DNA of 64,000 nt from a virus: positions 7,713-71,712 of the IMG/VR virus record IMGVR_UViG_3300027970_000019, one strand, 5' to 3'. Under the pieces are notes generated by a model, which did no database searches, was not told where the DNA came from, and saw only the letters and a program-made list of their open reading frames with translations. Positions 12,392 to 38,527 of the stretch are shown here, in pieces. Made by a program: the position numbers and the translations under genes. Position 1 is the stretch's first letter. Every line of letters starts with the position of its first letter.

Positions 12392-13795
12392 ATGAACTTC
12401 TTAGACGCATTACAAACAGAAGACACATTTACTGAAAATGGTATGGTTACAAATTCATCAACTCTTAATGAGTGTGTGAATTTATTCTTCACCATTGGAG
12501 CAATGAGAGGACAAGACAAACAAAGATTGTTGAGTAATTTCTCAAAGGCATTTAATGAAAATCCATTGACTGCGATGCGTATTCTATTTTGGTCAAGAGA
12601 TGTTCGTGGAGGTGCTGGTGAAAGACAAATATTCCGTGATATAATCCAATTCTTAGCAGAAACGGATTCAGAAGTATTGGCAAAGAACATTAAGTTCATC
12701 CCAGAATTCGGTCGTTGGGACGATTTAACTGTCCTATTCAACACCAAAGTGAATAACGATGCGATGGCGACAATAATCCAGGGATTAGAATCCCGTAATG
12801 GATTGTGTGCAAAGTGGATGCCAAGAAAAGGGGTTATATTTAACTCCATCAGAAAGGCTATGGGTCTGACACCAAAATCTTTACGTAAAATGTTGGTTGA
12901 ACTTTCCAACACCGTAGAACAAAAGATGTGTGCAAATGAGTGGTCAAATATTGAATACTCTAAACTACCATCTTTATCTATGGGAAGATATTCAAAAGCG
13001 TTTCCAAAACACGATAGTCTTGGGTTTGGTCAATATATTCTCGCCCTTAAAAATGGTGAGACTAAGGTAAATGCAAGTGCAGTTTATCCTTATGATGTTG
13101 TCAAAACCTTGAACTTAGGTAATAGAGAATTAGCTATTGAACAATGGAAAGCTCTTCCAAATTTTATGGAAGGATGTACCGAAAGAATACTACCTGTTGT
13201 GGATGTTTCAGGATCTATGATTAGCAGTGTTGGTGGAAACGCCAATGTTACTTGTATGGATGTTGCAATATCATTGGGATTGTATATTTCTGAGAGAAAT
13301 GAGGGTGTATTCAAAGATAGTTTTATTACTTTCTCTGAAAAACCTGAACTACAAAAACTAAGTGGTGATTTGTATCAAAGATATACACAACTTAGTCGTT
13401 CTGATTGGGGTATGAGTACAAACCTTGAGAAAGTGTTTAGAGTAATCCTTGGTCAGGCAGTGAAACATAATGTCTCTGAGAATGAAATGCCAACGAAAAT
13501 CCTTATCTTGTCTGATATGGAATTTAATCAAGCAACAAACCTACCTTTAACTGCAATGCAGATGATTCGTAGGGAGTACGAACAACACGGATACACTTTA
13601 CCTAGTATCGTTTATTGGAATATTCAATCAAGAAATAAGAACTTCCCAGTTCGTTTCGATGAAAAGGGAACATCATTGATTTCTGGTTTGAGTCCTGCAA
13701 TAATGAAATCAGTTTTGGTAGGAAATATTGATTCACCAGAATCAATTATGAATATCACGATTGACTCAGATAGATACAAGATGTTAGTAATCTAA
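12392..13795 (+). CDS. ROT/TROVE-like plus vWA protein (DUF2828-like, Ro60-related)
   Basis: TENG, RDVRGGAGER, GRWDDL, AKWMPR; vWA MIDAS VVDVSGSM; ILSDMEF; YWN. Confidence 0.85.
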   Translation: MNFLDALQTEDTFTENGMVTNSSTLNECVNLFFTIGAMRGQDKQRLLSNFSKAFNENPLTAMRILFWSRDVRGGAGERQIFRDIIQFLAETDSEVLAKNIKFIPEFGRWDDLTVLFNTKVNNDAMATIIQGLESRNGLCAKWMPRKGVIFNSIRKAMGLTPKSLRKMLVELSNTVEQKMCANEWSNIEYSKLPSLSMGRYSKAFPKHDSLGFGQYILALKNGETKVNASAVYPYDVVKTLNLGNRELAIEQWKALPNFMEGCTERILPVVDVSGSMISSVGGNANVTCMDVAISLGLYISERNEGVFKDSFITFSEKPELQKLSGDLYQRYTQLSRSDWGMSTNLEKVFRVILGQAVKHNVSENEMPTKILILSDMEFNQATNLPLTAMQMIRREYEQHGYTLPSIVYWNIQSRNKNFPVRFDEKGTSLISGLSPAIMKSVLVGNIDSPESIMNITIDSDRYKMLVI

Positions 13796-13801
13796 CAATA
13801 T

Positions 13802-13936
13802 GGAAAAATTGGTTTATAAGGAATGATTCCTGCAAATCTAACTACAATCAATAACTAGAATCGAGATGGTTAAACTCACTTCTCCCACCAAGGAGATAAA
13901 TTTTTAACCAAAACCCATTCTGAAACCAATTTTTCC
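13802..13936 (+). ncRNA. structured repeat RNA copy 1 (Y-RNA-like hairpin)
   Basis: 14-bp stem GGAAAAATTGGTTT/AAACCAATTTTTCC, ATAA/G internal loop, GGAATG/CATTCT, TTCCTGCAAA motif. Confidence 0.7.
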
Positions 13937-13987
13937 TATTTTTTTCTTGACTTAATGAAACTTTTTATCTAATTTTACGTTATATAT

Positions 13988-14054
13988 TGTACAAGGGATA
14001 GTTCCAGCAAATTAAAAATCAAATTATAGGAATTTTGAAAAACCTATCCTGACA
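13988..14054 (+). ncRNA. structured repeat RNA copy 2
   Basis: TGT/ACA, ACAA/G loop, GGGATAG/CTATCCT, TTCCAGCAAA. Confidence 0.65.
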
Positions 14055-14060
14055 TTTTAC

Positions 14061-14127
14061 TGGTTATAAAGAATGAGTTCAGCAAACTAAAACAAATCCA
14101 AATTGTAAAAAAAATCATTCTGAACCA
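14061..14127 (+). ncRNA. structured repeat RNA copy 3
   Basis: TGGTT/AACCA, ATAA/G loop, AGAATGA/TCATTCT, GTTCAGCAAA. Confidence 0.7.
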
Positions 14128-14170
14128 AACTTTTTAATAAATTACAAATACTTATAAACAAATACAAATA

Positions 14171-14266
14171 ATGAAACGCTCAAATAAACATAATGTAATA
14201 TCAATTCAACCGCAATTTAGCAATTGCTGGATTGGTAATATCTATGGTTTGGGTATAGTAAGTTAA
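14171..14266 (+). CDS. attenuator leader peptide 1 (MKRSNKHNVISIQPQFSNCWIGNIYGLGIVS)
   Basis: A-rich start context; ends 27 nt before a terminator; contains antiterminator strand. Confidence 0.75.
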   Translation: MKRSNKHNVISIQPQFSNCWIGNIYGLGIVS

Positions 14267-14292
14267 TTTTACATTTTATTATTTTTCATAAT

Positions 14293-14328
14293 AAAAACCC
14301 TGAACCGAAAAAGTTCAGGGTTTTTTTT
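14293..14328 (+). terminator. attenuator terminator 1
   Basis: AAAAACCCTGAAC/GTTCAGGGTTTTT plus T-run; 5' arm can pair alternatively with GGTTTGGGT 14246-14254. Confidence 0.85.
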
Positions 14329-14357
14329 GTTCATTGACATCGTTGGTAAAAATATAA

Positions 14358-14430
14358 TCCCCCTTGGTATAAAGGTTGATTACATCAGATTTTGATTCTG
14401 AAAATGGTGGTTCAATTCCATCAGGGGGAA
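14358..14430 (+). tRNA. tRNA-Gln(TTG)
   Basis: Cloverleaf TCCCCCT/AGGGGGA; tcaga-ttTTGat-tctga. Confidence 0.9.
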
Positions 14431-14561
14431 CAAAAAAAAATATCAAATCTTGGAACTAATAGGATGTGATATTGGTTTTAATAAAAGAGTAAGGAAAGGT
14501 CGTAGGTAGCACTGTCCACAGCCAGCCTTAAACGTGGTGGATACTTACTCTAAATTTTTAT

Positions 14562-14598
14562 GGTGATGTTGCCAAGTTGGTCAAGGCGAACGACTGAA
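14562..14598 (+). pseudogene. 5' half of tRNA-Phe(GAA), truncated
   Basis: GGTGATG TT GCC AAGTTGGTCAA GGC G AACGA CTGAA then unrelated sequence; no 3' half found. Confidence 0.65.
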
Positions 14599-14892
14599 GT
14601 GGTGGTGACCCACACGATTCATATGGTGAAGAAATTTTTGATGGTATTAAAATAATTCTTAATAAATAAAATCTAATGTTATGTTGATGTTTTATTCAAT
14701 TTTTTTCCTTATCATTGCCTTGGTATTATTGATAATCTGGGTAACCAAAAGAAGTTCTGATTTATTATTGATTTCAATCGTTTTCTTTTTGGTTGTTATG
14801 TTGGGTTTTATTTATACGTTTTTTGTTTAAATATATGTAGGTTCGAGTAGGTTTTTCCGTACTATCAATATATTTATATATAAAATAGATAT

Positions 14893-15681
14893 ATGAAAGA
14901 ACTATACAAAGGACACTACCAAAATGTTTTAAGAGGTCAAAAATTAGCAACTGAAGCTGCTAAGTTGAAATCTGATAAGGTAAAAGAAGAGTATAATAAA
15001 ACCCCTAATAAATGTACGAATTGTGGGAATGATTTGACTTATCCTCAAAGACATAACAAGTTTTGTTGTAGTTCTTGTGCCGCAAGTTTTAACAATAAAA
15101 ATAGAGGTGGACATAAGGAAGAAACTAAGATTAAAATTTCAAAGAAACTTGAGGGGAGAACTTTAAGTCCTGAACATAAAGAGAAGTCCATTAAATCCCT
15201 TCAACGAGTGGTCAAACAAAGACACGATGAGGGTTATGAAAGATTCTTAAACAAAAAGACAGGAAAAAATTGTGTTATATGTAACACAGAAATTACTTAC
15301 GAAAATAGATTTAGAAAAACTTGTTCAGATGAGTGTCAAATAAAAAGTAAAACAAACAGAAAATACTTGAATGGTAGTAGAAAAACAATAAACTACAATG
15401 GTATTATTTTGGAATCAAGTTGGGAATTAAAATTAGCAGAATGGTTGGATGAGTATAAGATTAAATGGATAAGACCAGAACCAATTAAATGGGTTTTAGA
15501 TGGTAAAAACAAACTTTATTATCCTGACTTTTATCTACCAGATTTCAACTTGTATCTAGATCCAAAAAATCCATATTGTATGGATAAGGATAGGGTGAAA
15601 ATGGAAATTGTATCAAAAGAAATTAATATTATTTTTGGCGATATTGATTATGTAATTACTAAATTAGGGGATGTGGTGTAA
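14893..15681 (+). CDS. free-standing homing endonuclease (Zn ribbon, NUMOD3, PD-(D/E)XK)
   Basis: CxxC pairs, HKEETKIKISKKL, SSWE...YYPDFYL...YLDPK; stop codon lies inside tRNA-Pro. Confidence 0.8.
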   Translation: MKELYKGHYQNVLRGQKLATEAAKLKSDKVKEEYNKTPNKCTNCGNDLTYPQRHNKFCCSSCAASFNNKNRGGHKEETKIKISKKLEGRTLSPEHKEKSIKSLQRVVKQRHDEGYERFLNKKTGKNCVICNTEITYENRFRKTCSDECQIKSKTNRKYLNGSRKTINYNGIILESSWELKLAEWLDEYKIKWIRPEPIKWVLDGKNKLYYPDFYLPDFNLYLDPKNPYCMDKDRVKMEIVSKEINIIFGDIDYVITKLGDVV

Positions 15682-15738
15682 CTCGGTTAGCATACTTCGT
15701 TTGGGACGAAGAGGAGGCGTTCAAATCGCACATCCCCA
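15667..15738 (+). tRNA. tRNA-Pro(TGG)
   Basis: GGGGATG/CATCCCC; cttcg-ttTGGga-cgaag; imperfect T stem. Confidence 0.8.
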
Positions 15739-15746
15739 ACACAATA

Positions 15747-15820
15747 GGTTTTATAGCTCAATTGGTTAGAGCTTTCCGCTCATAACGGAGGGGTTCCAGG
15801 TTCGAGTCCTGGTAGAACCA
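15747..15820 (+). tRNA. tRNA(CAT), likely Ile2
   Basis: GGTTTTA/TAGAACC; ctCATaa loop; body resembles Ile2 tRNAs (TAGCTCAATTGGTTAGAGC). Confidence 0.8.
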
Positions 15821-15903
15821 CAAAAAAATATTCAACACTTGAAACTTTTTATTCTTTGGTGTGGTTTATATAATTGAAGTTTGAATCATAAAAAAATAAC
15901 ACT

Positions 15904-16158
15904 ATGTACAGCACACAATTAATTTACACTAAAGAAGTTATTAAATATTTCAAAGATGGTGTTGAAGTTACACCAGAAACATATAATGAAAAATTGTTTT
16001 TTACTTTATATGGTGAAACTAAAGTTATAAAAACTGAAAAGATAGTGGAAGAATGGAAAGTGAAAACAAAAAAAGAGGTTAATTTAAAATTCAATAATTG
16101 GATTAACGAAAACAATGTGAGTATAAGTGATTACCACCTTGTTTATGTAAATAAATAA
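15904..16158 (+). CDS. hypothetical protein
   Basis: ORF track; GAAAC-N17-GGTT motif upstream. Confidence 0.6.
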   Translation: MYSTQLIYTKEVIKYFKDGVEVTPETYNEKLFFTLYGETKVIKTEKIVEEWKVKTKKEVNLKFNNWINENNVSISDYHLVYVNK

Positions 16159-16182
16159 AGTTCTGTCACCCATACAATAATA

Positions 16183-16259
16183 CGGCAAGTATACCCTCGT
16201 GCTGATACCACGTAGAAAGGTTAATTGGTTACATATAGGTTCGATTCCTATCTTGCCGA
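16183..16259 (+). tRNA. non-canonical tRNA-Ile(GAT)-like RNA lacking a D-arm
   Basis: CGGCAAG/CTTGCCG-A, perfect T arm, CGTG-ctGATac-CACG, D-loop-like AATTGGTTA placed after anticodon arm. Confidence 0.6.
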
Positions 16260-16321
16260 CATAGATTAAAAGTCAATTGTTCGAATGTGATATATTTATA
16301 TATAATAAAATATTACATAAA

Positions 16322-16939
16322 ATGAAAAGTTGTGAAAATTGTAGTTTAGAACACGATGGTACATATGGTTCTGGTAGATTTTGTTGTTCAAAGTGTGCTA
16401 GAAGTTTCAGTACTAAAAATAAAAGAAATGAGATTAATCGAAAGGTTTCGAAATCACTTGCTGGCAGGGGACATGGAAAAATAAAATTAATTTGTGAAAA
16501 TTGTAAAAATCAATTTGAAGTTAATTGGACTAAACGAAATCAAAAGACGTGTTCATTTAGTTGTAGTTCTTCACTTAAATGGGAAAACGAAGATTATAAA
16601 AGAAAGATGTCTATCATTAATTCAAATAATGCTTATGAAAGACATAAAAATGATGATAAAACTTTTGGTTGGAAAACTAGGAAAAAGTTAGAACCATCTT
16701 ACCCCGAAAAGGTGGCTATGAGAGTTTTAGATTCTTTAAATATTCAATACGAATATGAAATGCCATTAGAAAGATATTATGTTGACTTTGCAATACACGA
16801 TAGAAAAATTGCTATCGAAATAGATGGTAAACAACATGATAAGCCTGAACGAATCATAACTGATAAACTTAAAGATAAACTTTTGATTAAAAATGGGTGG
16901 GATTTTTCTTTTAAAATTTTCAACCGAAATGTTAATTAG
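16322..16939 (+). CDS. homing endonuclease, Vsr/DUF559-like, C-terminus disrupted
   Basis: Zn ribbons; SYPE...YYVDFAI...IEIDGKQH...D..L...GW then abrupt unrelated tail. Confidence 0.75.
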   Translation: MKSCENCSLEHDGTYGSGRFCCSKCARSFSTKNKRNEINRKVSKSLAGRGHGKIKLICENCKNQFEVNWTKRNQKTCSFSCSSSLKWENEDYKRKMSIINSNNAYERHKNDDKTFGWKTRKKLEPSYPEKVAMRVLDSLNIQYEYEMPLERYYVDFAIHDRKIAIEIDGKQHDKPERIITDKLKDKLLIKNGWDFSFKIFNRNVN

Positions 16940-16960
16940 AACGATGAACGGAACACTTAC

Positions 16961-17083
16961 ACATAACGGATGCAAATATAAAACGTTTATTAACGAAAAC
17001 TTAAATTGAAAAACAGAATTTAAAATATAAACCAATAACAAATTTGGAACACTGAAATAAATGTTTTATATTTGTTGTTATAA
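16961..17083 (+). mobile_element. attC-like palindromic cassette recombination site
   Basis: ACATAAC ... GTTATAA ends; 19-bp inverted repeat 16973-16991/17056-17074. Confidence 0.55.
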
Positions 17084-17118
17084 GTATGTATTATTTTTTA
17101 ACATAAAACTTAAATAGA

Positions 17119-17877
17119 ATGGAAGAACTTAAAATTTGGCTTGAAGGTTTTATTAGCCATACTGAAAAGAAAATTGAAAATATGAAACGAGTTGTTCCAG
17201 ATCATAGGAACATTAAAAGATTTGAAGGTGAAGTTAGTATGGCTAAGAAAAATCAAGACGTAAAATTTGCTGTTGACTTAAAAACAACTTACAGGAAGAA
17301 AAGCGGAGTTTCTAGTTTTACTTTGGGAAGTCACGGAAGTTATTTCAAAGAAAGGGACAAAAAGAAAAATATTCAGTTTCCCTACAATCAATATTTAGCA
17401 CATTTTTGTTTGGGTGTAATTTACACAAGAACAGACTTGGCTGATGATGCTTCTGAAACAGAAATTTATCAAGTTCAAGAACTTCAAGAAGAATACGAAA
17501 CGCCTAACCAAAAAGTAGGAGAAAGAGAAGTAGCAACCGTTAAAAATTTAAAATCAATTACATCAGTGATTAAAGATTTTGACTTTTTTGTCGCAGAGAA
17601 ATGGAAAATTGCGAGTGACAAACAAGGTTTGGGAAATACTGCAAATATCGGTGCTACACTTAGCATTGACGATTTAAGAAGTGAAAATGGAATTTTTAGC
17701 CAACTAGGTGAAGAATGGTTTGATGAATATTGGATAAATCACGGTTCTGCAACAATGGTAAAAGATGGTAAGCCAACAAAAATTACCACTCTTAAAGACT
17801 TTTTAGAATTTAAAGGTAGGACAGACTTATGGGATAAGATAGTAAAGTGTTCAACTTTAAAAAAGGATGCCGAATGA
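17119..17877 (+). CDS. chimeric, N-truncated EcoRV-family restriction endonuclease
   Basis: KFAVDLKTTY...FTLGSHGSYF...KNIQFPYNQYLAHFCLGVIYTR matches EcoRV; the upstream PD motif is missing. Confidence 0.8.
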   Translation: MEELKIWLEGFISHTEKKIENMKRVVPDHRNIKRFEGEVSMAKKNQDVKFAVDLKTTYRKKSGVSSFTLGSHGSYFKERDKKKNIQFPYNQYLAHFCLGVIYTRTDLADDASETEIYQVQELQEEYETPNQKVGEREVATVKNLKSITSVIKDFDFFVAEKWKIASDKQGLGNTANIGATLSIDDLRSENGIFSQLGEEWFDEYWINHGSATMVKDGKPTKITTLKDFLEFKGRTDLWDKIVKCSTLKKDAE

Positions 17878-18791
17878 AAGTAATTGTTCCACCAATAAAA
17901 AGTCAGGGCATAAAAACCAAGCTAGTTCCTTGGATTATGGAACTTGCACCAAAGGTTCAAGGTAAATGGATAGAACCATTTCTTGGAACTGGTGTAGTTG
18001 CGTTTAATTCGGGTTACAAAAAAGCGATTTTAAACGATACAAATCCTCATATTATCAATTTTTATAAAGGTATTCAGGCAAAAGAAATTACTGCACCTTT
18101 GATGAAACACTATCTTGAACAAGAAGGAGCGATTTTAAGTGAAGCCGACAATAATGGTTATGAGCATTATTTAAAAGTTCGTTCTCGTTTCAATGCTGGA
18201 GAATTTTCACCTTACGATTTTATTTTCCTTTCAAGAGCAGGATTTAATGGAATGATGAGATTTAACAACAAAGGTCATTGGAATATTCCATTCTGTAAAA
18301 AACCAGAACGTTTTGCTCAAGCATACGTGACAAAAATCACAAATCAAGTTGCAACGGTTTCTCAAATCATTCAAACTGAGCCTGACTGGACTTTTCACAA
18401 CAAATCATTTGCTGACATAATACCTTTAGCTACTGAAAACGACATTATTTATTGCGACCCACCATATTACGGCAGACACGTTGACTATTTTAACGGTTGG
18501 ACAGAACAAGACGAAGAACTTCTATTCAATTTATTAAGTGAAACAAAAGCAAAATTTATTCTTTCAACTTGGCATCATAACGACTGGCGACAAAATGAAA
18601 TGATTGAAAAATTTTGGAGTAAATTTAATGTAGTCACAAAAGACCATTTTTATCATAATGGCGGTAGTATTGAAAATAGACGGACAGTTGTTGAAGCATT
18701 AGTCTGCAACTTTAATACAGACCATTTTGACCAACACAATCACGGTCAGAAAGAAAAAATAAAATTATATGACGAATGTAAAAATTGGTGA
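17874..18791 (+). CDS. Dam-family N6-adenine methyltransferase (M.EcoRV-like)
   Basis: PPIKSQGIKTKL, EPFLGTGVV, FNGMMRFN, YCDPPY. Confidence 0.92.
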   Translation: MKVIVPPIKSQGIKTKLVPWIMELAPKVQGKWIEPFLGTGVVAFNSGYKKAILNDTNPHIINFYKGIQAKEITAPLMKHYLEQEGAILSEADNNGYEHYLKVRSRFNAGEFSPYDFIFLSRAGFNGMMRFNNKGHWNIPFCKKPERFAQAYVTKITNQVATVSQIIQTEPDWTFHNKSFADIIPLATENDIIYCDPPYYGRHVDYFNGWTEQDEELLFNLLSETKAKFILSTWHHNDWRQNEMIEKFWSKFNVVTKDHFYHNGGSIENRRTVVEALVCNFNTDHFDQHNHGQKEKIKLYDECKNW

Positions 18792-27329: not shown

Positions 27330-27547
27330 CAATGAGTAAGGGATACTCACCAGTCTTTGGTTCAAGACTCATTTAACAATGAACTCGGTTTAGACTGGGA
27401 AATGCCGATAGTACCCAGCCGTGGAATAACGGTCCCAACACGCCGCCACGTAGTCTGACTTTTTTCAAAGGGGATGCCCAGCAGGTTTTTTAAATAGGAA
27501 AAAACCGATGTAACTACTCACCAGTAATCTCAAGGTGGGGAAATTTA

Positions 27548-27621
27548 GCACCCATAGCTCAACTGGACAGAGCAAAAATTTTCTAAGTTTTCGGTTGTAG
27601 GTTCAACTCCTACTGGGTGTA
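27548..27621 (+). tRNA. tRNA-Arg(TCT)
   Basis: GCACCCA/TGGGTGT; ttTCTaa. Confidence 0.9.
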
Positions 27622-27703
27622 CAAAAAAATATTTGAAATTGTTTGAACTCTTTTTAACTTTGGGTGGTTTATATTAGAAATCACCCTTTAAAAACAAAAC
27701 ACA

Positions 27704-27967
27704 ATGGCACTAATATATCTTATAGTAAATAGGGAAGATAAAATCCCAGCACTAACTGCAACCAGTATGGAAAAGGCTAAAAATCTCTTGGATGAGTATA
27801 TGGGAATGCCCCCATATTACCAGGATAAAGATGTAGAATACTTGGGTTATGAACCTTATTATTCTAAATATGGTGGAGACATATTTGAGGGTATTTACAA
27901 ATATAGATTTGAGGGGGAAATACAAGAATACAATTTGTATTGTATGGAAATTGATAACTTAAATTAA
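27704..27967 (+). CDS. hypothetical protein
   Basis: ORF track. Confidence 0.6.
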   Translation: MALIYLIVNREDKIPALTATSMEKAKNLLDEYMGMPPYYQDKDVEYLGYEPYYSKYGGDIFEGIYKYRFEGEIQEYNLYCMEIDNLN

Positions 27968-28052
27968 AAATACTTGATAAGTTATTTGGAAATTAGAATA
28001 GGAAAGTGTAATTTTACATCAGAATATAACTCACCAATAAATCTTCAATAAA

Positions 28053-28451
28053 ATGTTTACAGCAAAGACCAAAATCTCAACTTTGTCTAAATACCAGGTT
28101 GCTAAACTTGCTAACATAATTGTTGAGTTTTGCCAAATCAATCTTGGTAAAAAACGTAACAAACAATTCCCCAAACTTGTTTTGTCTTATAAGAATGAAG
28201 AAGATTGGGGTTGTTATGATCCAGAAGAACACATTGTTTATGTGTATGTGAATAACATACCAAACGTATCTGAGTTGTCAAAAACAATTATACACGAATG
28301 GACTCATACCAAACAGAACATCATTGGTGAGTATGGAAGATTGTATCGTAAACATGGGTATGACGAACACCCAATGGAAATTGAGGCATATGCTTCTGAG
28401 AAAGTATGGAATCGTAAATCATTATATTACCTAAGAAAAAAATTGAACTAA
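28053..28451 (+). CDS. HEXXH metallopeptidase-like protein
   Basis: TIIHEWTHTKQ...PMEIEA. Confidence 0.75.
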   Translation: MFTAKTKISTLSKYQVAKLANIIVEFCQINLGKKRNKQFPKLVLSYKNEEDWGCYDPEEHIVYVYVNNIPNVSELSKTIIHEWTHTKQNIIGEYGRLYRKHGYDEHPMEIEAYASEKVWNRKSLYYLRKKLN

Positions 28452-28843
28452 TGGACTTTTTATATCATAGTATTTTTAAAGACAAATTAAAGGAATTTGG
28501 ATTTGATAATCCCGCCTTTGAAGACTTATATTTATTTGCTGAATCAAACAACATTAATTGTGTTATTGATGAGGTGGATGGTAAATGGGTTTATAGGATT
28601 TATTGTAATGAATATGTATTTGACGATTGTGACGAATATGATGACTTAGATGAATGTGAGTTGGATATGTTTAGACACTTGATTATGGATTTAGAGTTCA
28701 TTATGGGTATTGAGGAAGATTGGTATTATACATTAACTGATGAACAGAGAAAACAAATTGAGAGGGGACTGGAAGATGTTAAAAATGGTAGAGTTGTCCC
28801 TCACGAGGAAGTGATGAAACAAGTTAAGGAACTTTTTAAATAA
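28451..28843 (+). CDS. acidic protein with antitoxin-like C-terminus
   Basis: LTDEQRKQIERGLEDVKNGRVVPHEEV. Confidence 0.55.
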   Translation: MDFLYHSIFKDKLKEFGFDNPAFEDLYLFAESNNINCVIDEVDGKWVYRIYCNEYVFDDCDEYDDLDECELDMFRHLIMDLEFIMGIEEDWYYTLTDEQRKQIERGLEDVKNGRVVPHEEVMKQVKELFK

Positions 28844-28847
28844 AACT

Positions 28848-28923
28848 GCGGTTGTAGTATAAAGGATGATTATGTTGCCTTGCCAAGGCAGTGATATGGG
28901 TTCGATTCCCGTCAACCGCTCCA
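28848..28923 (+). tRNA. tRNA-Gly(GCC), CCA encoded
   Basis: GCGGTTG/CAACCGC-TCCA; ttGCCaa. Confidence 0.92.
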
Positions 28924-28937
28924 AAAAAATAAAAATT

Positions 28938-29243
28938 ATGGATAAAAAGAAAGAATTTCAAAAAGAATATGAAGCATATATGAAACAAGTAACAGATAGT
29001 TTTATTAATATGCAAAGCGAGACGACAACACAAGAACATTCGAAAGATGTAATGTCACAAATGTTAATTGTTGAATGGAATTGTGGATTAGATTGGAAAG
29101 CAATCAAAACAGAAGAAATGTTTCGTGATGGAAACTTAATGGAAGAAAACAGGCAATACAATTCTGAAATAGCGAAGAAATATTTACAAGCTAATACACT
29201 AACTTATGATGAGTGGGTTGCGAAGCATAAAACAAATTCATAA
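28938..29243 (+). CDS. hypothetical protein
   Basis: ORF trimmed to ATG after tRNA. Confidence 0.55.
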   Translation: MDKKKEFQKEYEAYMKQVTDSFINMQSETTTQEHSKDVMSQMLIVEWNCGLDWKAIKTEEMFRDGNLMEENRQYNSEIAKKYLQANTLTYDEWVAKHKTNS

Positions 29244-29452
29244 AATTTTTAAAATTAAACATAACTAAGAAATATACCCAGTAATCCCCAACCCCAACAA
29301 AATCAAGGGTTTGAATCTGTTGAATTACAAGATTAGAAAATAAAATAGTAATACTTATAATTATTCCCAGGTATTGATTGACAATGGAATGTTACATATA
29401 TTTAGTGAGAGTCAACTTGAGCTTGACAATAATCTTACAAATATTTAACATT

Positions 29453-29689
29453 ATGGAAAAGACACCAATTCAAAACGTAATTGACAAAATTGATAACTTA
29501 AGAAAAGAATTTAACTCATCACCAACCGAAAAACGTATTTTCTATTTGGTTATTTCGGCCCTTTGGGATGAGTTGGATGGTGAGAGGGAGGTATTAACCA
29601 AGATATTTGATTCTGGCAAGAATGGTGATGATATGAGTGGTAAAATATGGGTGAATGAAAATTTTATTGACTATCAAAAAATATTGTAA
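29453..29689 (+). CDS. hypothetical protein
   Basis: ORF track, ATG 29453. Confidence 0.55.
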   Translation: MEKTPIQNVIDKIDNLRKEFNSSPTEKRIFYLVISALWDELDGEREVLTKIFDSGKNGDDMSGKIWVNENFIDYQKIL

Positions 29690-29954
29690 TGAAAGAAAAA
29701 AATCAAGGTAAGACTGAATCTCAAAAAGAATTCGCGTTATTTATGTTTTCCGGTGCAATGATTGGAATAATCATATTGGGTTTGATTTATCTCATTAAGG
29801 TGGGATTTGGTTTTAACCCCTCATTTAACTATGATACATAGAGAAAACTGGTATGTATCATTTAAGGTTCGACCCCCTTTTCTTTGAACCCCACGCTCAC
29901 TTTGGTCGGCGTCTAGGTTTCTGATAGGTTCCCAGATAAGTTGAACATATTCAT

Positions 29955-30028
29955 ACCCCCTTGGCGGAATTGACATACGCATATGATTTAGGACCATAGT
30001 TTTGAGAGTTCGAGTTTCTCAGGGGGTA
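29955..30028 (+). tRNA. tRNA-Leu(TAG), short variable loop
   Basis: ACCCCCT/AGGGGGT-A; ttTAGga. Confidence 0.8.
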
Positions 30029-30051
30029 CTAACAATTTAAAAAATAAAAAA

Positions 30052-30300
30052 ATGGAAGTAATTGTATCATCATTGTTAATGTTTTCTGGACTATTCAGTG
30101 TACTTAGTTTCGGAATTGAAACTAATTTTAAAAAAGGTTTAACTCTTCTTATTGTTGGTTTTATTGTTTTTATGGTTGGTTATTTCACATTCCCAAAACC
30201 CCCATTGAAACCAATTGTATTGAAATCTGGTAAGGTTATTAATACCGATTCAATTTATACAAAGGGATATAAAGATGGGATTAAAGATTGTCAAAAATAA
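30052..30300 (+). CDS. small membrane protein
   Basis: two TM segments. Confidence 0.55.
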   Translation: MEVIVSSLLMFSGLFSVLSFGIETNFKKGLTLLIVGFIVFMVGYFTFPKPPLKPIVLKSGKVINTDSIYTKGYKDGIKDCQK

Positions 30301-30358
30301 TTTACAATTTGGGAACATTTGGTGGTGATGGTTGGTTATAATAAAAAACATAATCAAA

Positions 30359-30520
30359 ATGAAAAACAAGAATAAACTCCAAGTCACAATCAACGCCATC
30401 GGTAATGGCGCAAGATTGGACTATCTTGAGAAACATCCACATGGATTTGCCTCAGTTACAAAAGTCCACAAAAGTGTAAAAAATTATTCACGTAAAAACA
30501 AAAAGAATAATGAAATATAA
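30359..30520 (+). CDS. small basic protein, possible ArfA/BrfA-like rescue factor
   Basis: GFASVTKVHKSVKNYSRKNKK tail; GGAAC-N17-GGTT upstream. Confidence 0.45.
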   Translation: MKNKNKLQVTINAIGNGARLDYLEKHPHGFASVTKVHKSVKNYSRKNKKNNEI

Positions 30521-30878
30521 AATCTATTTGGATGATGAAAGAACCCCTAATGACAAAACTTAGATTGTTGTTAGAAATTATGACCAATTCATCCAAAAAA
30601 TATCTGAACTTGGTTTTGACAATATTGATGTCATTTCATTTGATCATGATTTGGGTGATACCAGAATTGAAGAAAAGACAGGATATGACGCGGCAAAATG
30701 GTTGGTTAATGAATATTGCGACTATACAATTCATACCCCTCAAATTTATTCTCACTCAGCCAATCCTATTGGAGCTGCTAATATTATTGGTTATGTTAAT
30801 AGTTTCTTAAAACATACTAAGAAAAAACAAACCGCTGAATTAAAAGTTGAACCTTTCACTATTCAAAACAAAGATTAA
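30510..30878 (+). pseudogene. cyclic-phosphate-processing receiver-domain protein with in-frame TAG
   Basis: MKYKIYLDDERTP...T*IVVRNY...ISFDHDLG...TGYD..KWL...HSANPIG; TAG 30561-30563. Confidence 0.75.
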
Positions 30879-31369
30879 TGAATATTTTCTTTTTGGATTA
30901 TGATGTTGTTAAATGTGTAAAATACCATTGTGACAAACACGCAGTCAAAATGATCCTAGAATACGGACAACTTTTATGTGGGGCTCACCATGTAACAGAA
31001 TCCAAATTGGATATCCCTTATAAATTATCACACAAAAACCACCCTTGTTCAATATGGGTTAGAGAATCATTATCTAATTACTATTACCTATGTGAACTTG
31101 GGTTGGAGTTGTGTAAGGAATATACCTATCGTTATGGTAGAAGACATAAAACCCAAGATGTGATTGAGTGGTGTGTAATGAATCCAATCAATGTAGTTGA
31201 TAAAGACTTTACAGAACCACCAAAAGCAATGACAGATGAATATAAAGTTAACGATGTTATCCAGTCATATCGGAACTATTATATTGGGGCAAAAAAAAAT
31301 TTTGTTTCTTGGAAAAATAGGGAAGTTCCTTATTGGTTTTGTGAAGAAAATAACTTAGAATTAGTGTAA
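30878..31369 (+). CDS. pyrimidine-dimer DNA glycosylase-like protein
   Basis: MNIFFLD...HCDKH.VKMILE..QLLC...HKNHPC..W...YRNYY. Confidence 0.85.
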   Translation: MNIFFLDYDVVKCVKYHCDKHAVKMILEYGQLLCGAHHVTESKLDIPYKLSHKNHPCSIWVRESLSNYYYLCELGLELCKEYTYRYGRRHKTQDVIEWCVMNPINVVDKDFTEPPKAMTDEYKVNDVIQSYRNYYIGAKKNFVSWKNREVPYWFCEENNLELV

Positions 31370-38100: not shown

Positions 38101-38148
38101 ATATTCTTTTATTATATAAATATATGATAAGAACAAAAACTTCCGATG

Positions 38149-38527
38149 TGGAGATACGGGGAATCGAACCCCGGTGTCGCCCATCTTAACTATTAAGGAC
38201 TACATGTTTAGGACAACATTATTCGCAATGTTCCGAACTACTTGATTTTTATATCCCCCAAAATCAACAAAATCGGCCAATTCATTTTTAGGGATGAGAA
38301 TTAGTTAGACAACCCTATAGTACTCCTGTTCCTGAGTGAATGTACCCCGACTCGAAAGTAATGACCTATTAACTAGGCTACTACCGTTTCTTCTGAACGG
38401 ATTAAACCGACAGCAGAAAGTTTGTCAAAGATGTTGCCATCTGTGTTTTAAACCAGTTTAACAGACTTAGTTCAGGTCTGACATGCCCCTAATAACCAAC
38501 AATGTCGATCGATGCCAATTTATCCCC
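38149..38527 (-). ncRNA. ssrA: tmRNA
   Basis: GGGGATA/TATCTCC-A with G3:U70, T arm, gcatg/catgt; tag frame 38438-38373. Confidence 0.9.

Follow-up and report, generated by a model that had tools for sequence, protein, structure and literature searches.

How do phages control the tRNA genes that they carry? To our knowledge the control of phage tRNA genes is essentially undescribed, and for tRNA genes in general control is assumed to act at initiation and not by attenuation. The question is raised in concrete form by the IMG/VR viral contig IMGVR_UViG_3300027970_000019 (71,712 bases, judged ~24% complete), of which we analysed bases 7713-71712, a stretch of 64,000 nucleotides with a G+C content of ~30% that we call the window; the sequencing runs that contain it are lake and freshwater metagenomes. 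In the region from 14 to 30 kb the window has 16-18 tRNA genes, all on the + strand, which fall into block 1 (14358..19560) and block 2 (22301..30029), and upstream of each block stands a cassette made of a short open reading frame (ORF) and an intrinsic terminator. A first-pass annotation of this DNA had claimed that codon-matched leader-peptide attenuators control both tRNA arrays. We find this claim supported by the way leader codons track tRNA content in relatives, by a pairing strand internal to the ORF and by the position of the codons, and we put at roughly 80% the probability that both cassettes are codon-matched, ribosome-mediated (leader-peptide) transcription attenuators placed before tRNA genes.

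In the mechanism that we propose, the transcript would begin upstream of the short ORF, the middle of which would offer about one codon for each tRNA species encoded past the terminator, and the last codons of which would form a strand able to pair with the 5' arm of the terminator. When decoding is fast, the ribosome would cover this strand or sit on it at the stop codon, the terminator would form, and no tRNAs would be made. When decoding of any sensed codon is slow, the ribosome would stall 9-44 nt upstream of the strand, which would then capture the 5' arm and allow readthrough. Each block would in this way be its own negative feedback loop, shut off by its own products, and the phage would probably make more of a tRNA set only when its ribosomes are short of that set. 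The natural trigger would presumably be codon demand, starvation, or tRNA cleavage by a host defence. The parts that make up an attenuator, that is a leader ORF, regulatory codons, an intrinsic terminator and an alternative antiterminator pairing, were all found, and it is the anatomy of the cassettes, their conservation, the correspondence between codons and blocks, and the alternative pairing that we observe.

Relatives were collected through a 467-residue DUF2828/DUF7788 protein encoded at 12392-13795, directly upstream of the leader 1 region; 290 relatives of this protein were found in viral contigs, and 80 loci were kept for analysis. Of the 20 longer records of the family 15 contain tRNAs, and when their tRNA regions were called the distant relatives proved to partition their tRNAs differently. 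Cassettes were sought as a hairpin followed by a T-run, with a short ATG ORF before it and a tRNA after it, which placed a cassette ahead of most blocks and yielded 15 leaders automatically and two more by eye. Each leader was then scored against every block of its own genome using wobble rules at the codon level and a background taken from long ORFs.

The resulting 17 leader/block pairs come from six phages with 2-4 blocks each, and in 17/17 the Z score of the leader for its own block was positive and the maximum of its row. Of 27,648 within-genome permutations the true pairing was the best (Z sum 49.3 vs 1.6 ± 10.2); it was likewise the best of 1,728 when the 15 automatic leaders alone were used, and the best of 13,824 when the window was omitted. 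The expectation of the first-pass annotation that leader codons should track array tRNAs in related phages was thus borne out. The correspondence can be read directly from individual cases. A leader with a core of Leu, Glu, Arg and Met codons precedes a block that encodes Leu(UAA), Glu, Arg(UCU) and Met; where the block consists of Arg(ACG), three Leu and Gln, the core is one of alternating Leu and Gln codons plus Arg; and Tyr, two Pro, Trp and Cys are encoded behind a leader rich in precisely those residues.

In relatives with a single large block the leaders take in almost everything. In G010b 34/34 leader codons are cognate (background 0.75). All 20 amino acids are represented in the leaders of L101 (G011) and L104 (G015), which have 46 and 48 codons (p ~0.03 each); the codon match of G015 is weak (28/47, p 0.059), perhaps owing to an incomplete tRNA list. 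G020, which has two overlapping candidate ORFs, neither of them convincing (p 0.28 and 0.07), was set aside. Nor was Vibrio phage KVP40 (L111 10794-10907) counted as a case, given a p of 0.016 by simulation and a weak alternative pairing; the weak candidate in this cultured phage is a 37-codon ORF that uses 19 different amino acids and is followed by a terminator, ~80 nt before the main tRNA block, and an annotated hypothetical gene occupies the opposite strand.

The mechanism requires a particular geometry, since a ribosome stalled on the sensing codons would, given its footprint, leave the antiterminator strand free, and a ribosome that has moved on or is terminating would cover it. In 17/17 leaders the 5' arm of the terminator has its best partner within the ORF, in a strand that ends 4-36 nt before the ORF end, and the duplexes range from -9 to -19 kcal/mol, 11/17 falling within the best 5% of shuffles and 17/17 within the best 25%. 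Cognate codons make up 76-90% in the bins 9-44 nt upstream of the strand, compared with 41-47% farther upstream, at 45-71 nt. From the start of the strand onwards the share is 31-33% in the first three bins and 19-50% in the last three (2-16 codons per bin). The matched codons are at the distance upstream that a stalled ribosome would need.

Of the 33 tRNA cluster starts examined, 26 are preceded within 750 nt by a hairpin plus T-run, and at 23 of these the ORF is present as well. In 10/17 cases the first tRNA begins 13-36 nt past the terminator, which leaves no room for a separate conventional promoter, so that those tRNAs would be made by readthrough only. The leaders are without a Shine-Dalgarno sequence; since one is present at just 3/55 long ORFs of the window, this is not an objection.

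In the window itself, leader ORF 1 (14171..14266, + strand) starts with ATG and has 31 codons. Its antiterminator strand (14246..14254, + strand) consists of codons 26-28, and the pairing of this strand with 14297-14306 that the first-pass annotation had pointed out is present in the minimum-energy fold of the RNA without the 3' arm of the terminator (z -1.39; 13/200 shuffles equally good). The duplex has an energy of -12.0 kcal/mol, as against -6.8 ± 2.4 in shuffles, and in an alignment of 10 distinct sequences 85.6% of its cells are paired, a value that falls to 58-59% after a slide by one column. The intrinsic terminator (14293..14332, + strand) has a stem of 13 pairs at 14293-14325 followed by a T-run and was the top + strand match of the terminator scan; when the RNA is folded with the whole of it, the terminator forms (z -5.69).

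Two further elements accompany leader 1. Upstream of the ORF is a near-invariant block (14109..14163, + strand), which may be a 5' leader or a promoter: it shows no variation in the window and all 10 aligned relatives, although the leader 1 ORF diverges, and a sigma-70-type scan gave no strong match within it. A hairpin at 14200..14236 (+ strand), found in the minimum-energy fold of 14190-14332, lies within the sensing codons and is a possible pause or timing hairpin. Its inner six pairs are paired in 100% of cells, five of them invariant and one changing on one side, and two outer pairs change on both sides among relatives.

Leader ORF 2 (22026..22097, + strand) is an ATG ORF of 23 codons, so that the short ORF proposed earlier is real and its start is at 22026, not at 22027. 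Ten consecutive codons of this leader are cognate to block 2. The two leaders divide the amino acids between them as had been noted, their translations placing Gln, Pro, Phe, Cys, Trp and Ile in leader 1 exclusively and Asp, Glu, Thr and Ala in leader 2 exclusively. Upstream lies a sigma-70-type promoter-like site (21972..21999, + strand, 11/12), which is the best match of this type within 13000-31000 and is conserved in the relatives G001-G003. The antiterminator strand (22081..22088, + strand), again inside the ORF, was taken from a fold of 22068-22138; the proposed pairing with the terminator 5' arm recurs in the minimum-energy fold without the 3' arm, where 22081-22088 pairs with 22122-22130 (z -2.68; 1/200 shuffles equally good), and the duplex has an energy of -11.0, as against -7.8 ± 2.5 in shuffles. 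Terminator 2 (22120..22154, + strand) has a 10-bp stem at 22120-22148 followed by a T-run; the simple terminator scan missed it on account of its 9-nt loop, and in the RNA folded with the whole of it the terminator forms (z -2.94). The sensing codons are closed by a predicted 8-bp hairpin (22063..22082, + strand), in which, from a reading of the alignment with G001, one pair is changed on both sides and one pair on one side, and the encoded residues change.

Both leader ORFs are conserved among close relatives. Of the 80 DUF2828 loci kept, 11 (L002-L012) have matching DNA downstream, and 10 of these contain the entire leader region; the 31-codon ATG ORF, ending 91-92 nt ahead of tRNA-Gln, is kept in 10/10, at DNA identities of 79-93%. 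Relatives of leader 2 were found by DNA search in the records with leader 1 relatives, L007 being left out, and the 23-codon ORF is at the same position in 3/3 (G001, G002 and G003). In these three the core residues of leader 2 are permuted in order relative to the window and are still drawn from the block 2 set (Asp, Glu, Met, Tyr, Gly, Ala, Thr, Arg(UCU), Leu). Given a permuted core and a hairpin that keeps its pairing while its residues change, selection on leader 2 appears to act on the codon set and the RNA structure, not on the peptide. Other routes to relatives gave nothing: a DNA search at near identity with 13800-22400 had no match in the phage collection, and a search of viral contigs found no relatives of the 171-residue protein encoded upstream of leader 2.

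The history of block 1 accounts for the imperfect fit of leader 1 to the genes that now follow it. In the group of relatives at ~78% identity, the block behind leader 1 comprises Gln, Phe, His, Arg(ACG), Ser(GCU), Pro, often a CAU tRNA and Ile(GAU), and also Asn, Lys, Val, Cys and Trp. Of codons 2-20 of leader 1 of the window, 17/19 are cognate to this full block 1, as against 1/19 to block 2. Compared with L004, a 95% relative, the window is without 2.76 kb, with the junction at 14599, and the deletion took away His, Asn, Lys, Arg(ACG) and one Leu tRNA as well as the 3' half of Phe; no other copies of the lost block 1 tRNAs were found elsewhere in this phage's record. Block 1 of the window is thus a deletion derivative of the block in this near relative, which is why leader 1 fits the fuller block of the relatives better than its own. 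Judged from these comparisons of sequence, leader 1 is a label for a block of which part no longer exists. An insertion of 841 nt (14825-15664), acquired by the window ahead of tRNA-Pro, holds most of a 262-residue ORF that gives a weak treble-clef match; this insertion is skipped in metagenome contigs from relatives. The spacer 14432-14561, from tRNA-Gln to the Phe remnant, is conserved with G001 as far as the Phe 5' end, a pattern that points to an RNA with a structure or function of its own.

Several points weigh against reading the cassettes as attenuators. Translation of the ORFs, termination, readthrough upon stalling and the direction of the switch are steps that we infer. In the window taken alone, cognate codons number 7/30 in leader 1 (p 0.12) and 13/22 in leader 2 (p 0.13), which is not significant (~0.06 each by simulation), and the significance of the codon match comes from the relatives; among these the leaders of different phages partly share descent, so that the 17 pairs are not fully independent, and 2/17 leaders were picked by eye. 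Leader 1 has codons for His, Asn, Lys, Arg-ACG, Val and Ser-GCU tRNAs that are now gone from the record. With respect to the RNA, 6/17 antiterminator duplexes are outside the best 5% of shuffles, the antiterminator fold of leader 1 has a z score of only -1.39, and antiterminator 1 shows no both-sided (compensatory) change in its shallow alignment of close relatives. Moreover, 7/33 tRNA cluster starts, mostly those of single tRNAs, are without an upstream terminator. Evidence of transcription bears little on the matter: three RNA-labelled runs have small shares and consist of assembled contigs, which cannot show transcript ends, strand or level and in which a lack of coverage says nothing, and the one RNA-library contig that spans 14108-14372, from a ~95% identical relative and covering leader 1, its terminator and 15 nt of tRNA-Gln, is a weak hint that may reflect DNA carry-over.

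Further points of this kind concern promoters within the tRNA island. The first-pass annotation had itself warned of internal promoter-like motifs downstream of the terminators, and for this window the caution is justified: the motif GGAAC-N17-GGTT occurs in six copies (starting at 14452, 22163, 22396, 23862, 28828 and 30312), as against 0.36 expected, all of them on the + strand and all within 14.4-30.4 kb. The shorter TGGAACTAA motif, with one mismatch allowed, is not enriched (35 matches vs 31 expected). One copy (22163..22188) lies between terminator 2 and tRNA-Asp and is a possible bypass promoter, and three copies start exactly 21 nt past a tRNA 3' end, ahead of ORF-filled gaps. The GGAAC-N17-GGTT motif may drive transcription of the inserted genes or belong to an RNA element; were it a promoter, part of the window tRNAs might escape the switch, and the ORF-filled gaps, which reach 3.6 kb within blocks, may hold further promoters. 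It might then be supposed that the attenuator is marginal in this phage, the tRNAs being driven mainly by internal promoters and the cassettes serving only to end upstream transcription or surviving as relics, a supposition that gains from the poor fit of leader 1 to its shrunken block. However, tRNA-Gln begins 34 nt after the stem of terminator 1 with no GGAAC-N17-GGTT between them, the motif is restricted to the window lineage, being missing behind terminator 2 in G001-G003 and either infrequent or lacking in the more distant relatives that bear leaders, and both leaders and both antiterminator strands are conserved. We regard a marginal attenuator as quite improbable.

The same parts might instead serve another read-out, in which translation of the leader would again sense decoding and would act through Rho, through RNA processing or stability, or with the opposite sign, such that fast translation would give readthrough. 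The direction of the switch is the step at which such a reading enters, and the hairpins in the sensing region could belong to a more complex switch. In some relatives, moreover, a short conserved motif of the GTTCWTTGA type, a possible processing site, lies between the terminator and the first tRNA. This motif is found at 14329-14337 and 22273-22281 in the window, where its 5 matches vs 2.2 expected are not significant; in relatives it precedes, by 10-25 nt, the mature 5' ends of some tRNAs and that of a transfer-messenger RNA (tmRNA), and it also occurs between tRNAs just 40 nt apart. It may be a processing signal, and would lie too near the mature 5' end for a standard two-box promoter. Another read-out is nevertheless hard to reconcile with the stop codon of leader 1, which is 27-31 nt upstream of the terminator 5' arm, so that a terminating ribosome cannot mask the terminator, and the competing strand inside the ORF in every leader, with the sensing codons just upstream, is the geometry of a switch in which stalling gives readthrough. 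We consider a different read-out of these parts unlikely.

Finally, the ORFs might be ordinary small genes, or no genes at all, that happen to end before terminators, their codon match being due to chance or shared ancestry. The match within the window is compatible with this, and terminator-like and promoter-like sites in 13000-31000 are no commoner than in shuffles. Neither chance nor ancestry, however, readily produces a true pairing that ranks first among all the permutations, a residue set preserved through substitutions, a peak of cognate codons at a fixed position, or leaders that change with their block where the tRNAs are partitioned differently. This explanation is very improbable and close to refuted, and codon-matched attenuation remains the reading that we prefer.

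We compared codon-matched attenuation before tRNA genes with known systems. Among the enterobacterial leader-peptide attenuators, which sense the supply of charged tRNA through the speed of decoding, those of thr (Thr, Ile) and ilvGMEDA (Ile, Val, Leu) are multivalent, and those of trp, his, leu and pheA respond to a single amino acid. The phage cassettes share with them the short leader ORF, the regulatory codons, the intrinsic terminator and an antiterminator dependent on ribosome position, translation and sensing being presumed in the phage, and by analogy the multivalent thr and ilvGMEDA leaders would be the closest in logic. The phage leaders differ in that they precede tRNA genes and not biosynthetic enzymes, so that the molecule sensed would be the product itself; in that they sample up to 13-20 amino acids with about one codon each, where the enterobacterial leaders have runs of one to three amino acids; and in that they come one per tRNA block. 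There is no sequence relationship with the Thr_leader family of Rfam (RF00506): the score of 30.4 bits on the + strand is below the cut-off of 55, and since the same hairpin scores 27.5 bits on the - strand, what matches is the terminator hairpin alone.

T-box riboswitches resemble the proposed phage mechanism in that readthrough of transcription is set by the state of a specific tRNA, but their ligand is uncharged tRNA, bound directly and with no translation involved, and the genes under their control are synthetase and amino-acid genes; the T-box covariance model found no match in 13500-31000 at E values up to 1. Resistance leaders of the erm/cat type respond to a ribosome that has bound the drug and carries a specific nascent peptide, and the majority of them regulate the initiation of translation. 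They have in common with the proposed phage leaders a short ORF on which a stalled ribosome remodels the downstream RNA, and differ in that the phage trigger would be codon supply. The nearest case that we found in print is that of Anabaena sp. PCC 7120, for which a cryptic long tRNA operon induced under translational stress is described. There too an accessory tRNA array is switched on when translation is impaired, as we propose for the phage, but the control in Anabaena is by a protein repressor, TrcR (PMC10272220), and the main texts of PMC8421152 and PMC10272220 do not contain the terms 'attenuat', 'leader' or 'leader peptide'. We found no account of leader-peptide control of tRNA genes in the published literature, of which subscription journals were thinly covered and in which an older account may exist; the application of ribosome-mediated attenuation to tRNA genes thus appears to be new, the principle of attenuation itself being known.

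The tRNA content listed for the two arrays in the first-pass annotation proved largely right on tRNA calling. Block 1 (all + strand) consists of Gln (14358-14431), a Phe(GAA) broken off after 37 nt (14562-14598), Pro (15666-15740), a CAU tRNA that is either Met or Ile2 (15747-15821), an Ile(GAU)-like tRNA without a D arm (16183-16259, 29.2 bits), Cys (19405-19477) and Trp (19487-19560). Block 2, also on the + strand, comprises Asp, Tyr, two long-arm tRNA-like genes, Glu, a CAU tRNA, Ala, Thr, a Gly that could be placed as Gly(UCC) (26830-26900), Arg(UCU), Gly(GCC) and Leu(UAG). The two genes with a long extra arm (23975-24069 and 24151-24244) are 94-95 nt in length and have ambiguous anticodons, and a further odd gene, the CAU tRNA of block 2 (25479-25562), has 84 nt. 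While the blocks exist as described, they are not compact arrays: endonuclease-type ORFs (DUF559; weak HNH) stand between the tRNAs, and the interior of block 1 also contains a restriction-modification pair, an EcoRV-type restriction endonuclease and a D12-class adenine methyltransferase that overlap each other (17119-18791).

Other features of the neighbourhood may be noted. The spacer that follows the DUF2828/DUF7788 gene (13796-14127) has repeated hairpin units, and an RNA-library contig lies over this area. A tmRNA is encoded at 38146-38527 on the - strand (83.1 bits); a cassette of ORF plus terminator was looked for upstream of it and none was found. In the relatives L077 and G005 a tmRNA heads a tRNA block, behind a leader and terminator. 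The promoters ahead of the leaders of relatives, compared by eye, resemble the Bacteroidota type, and assigning a host from this would be a guess.

What would such cassettes do for the phage? A leader that samples every tRNA of its block would give product feedback on decoding capacity, and attenuators of this kind would account for the division of tRNAs into blocks in large phages; the leader sequences would in turn reveal which tRNAs act together. A more speculative possibility, to which we give tentative credence and hold to be rather less probable than its negation, is that the blocks are self-reporting modules that sense which of the host tRNAs have been destroyed, for example by anticodon nucleases of defences, or outrun by phage codon demand, and supply the matching set alone. 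By the same token, the leader might be a readable label of its block, and would follow the block's content as tRNA genes are gained or lost and as blocks split or fuse. The cassettes might be sensors of tRNA loss inflicted by defences, and the matter bears on whether phage tRNAs serve codon supply or counter-defence against immune systems that cleave tRNA. A synthetic sensor of decoding could borrow the same design, with one sensing codon for each tRNA. If the reading of the blocks as self-reporting modules is true, no earlier case of tRNA genes governed by their own decoding activity would be known, and theirs would be a counter-defence sensed codon by codon.

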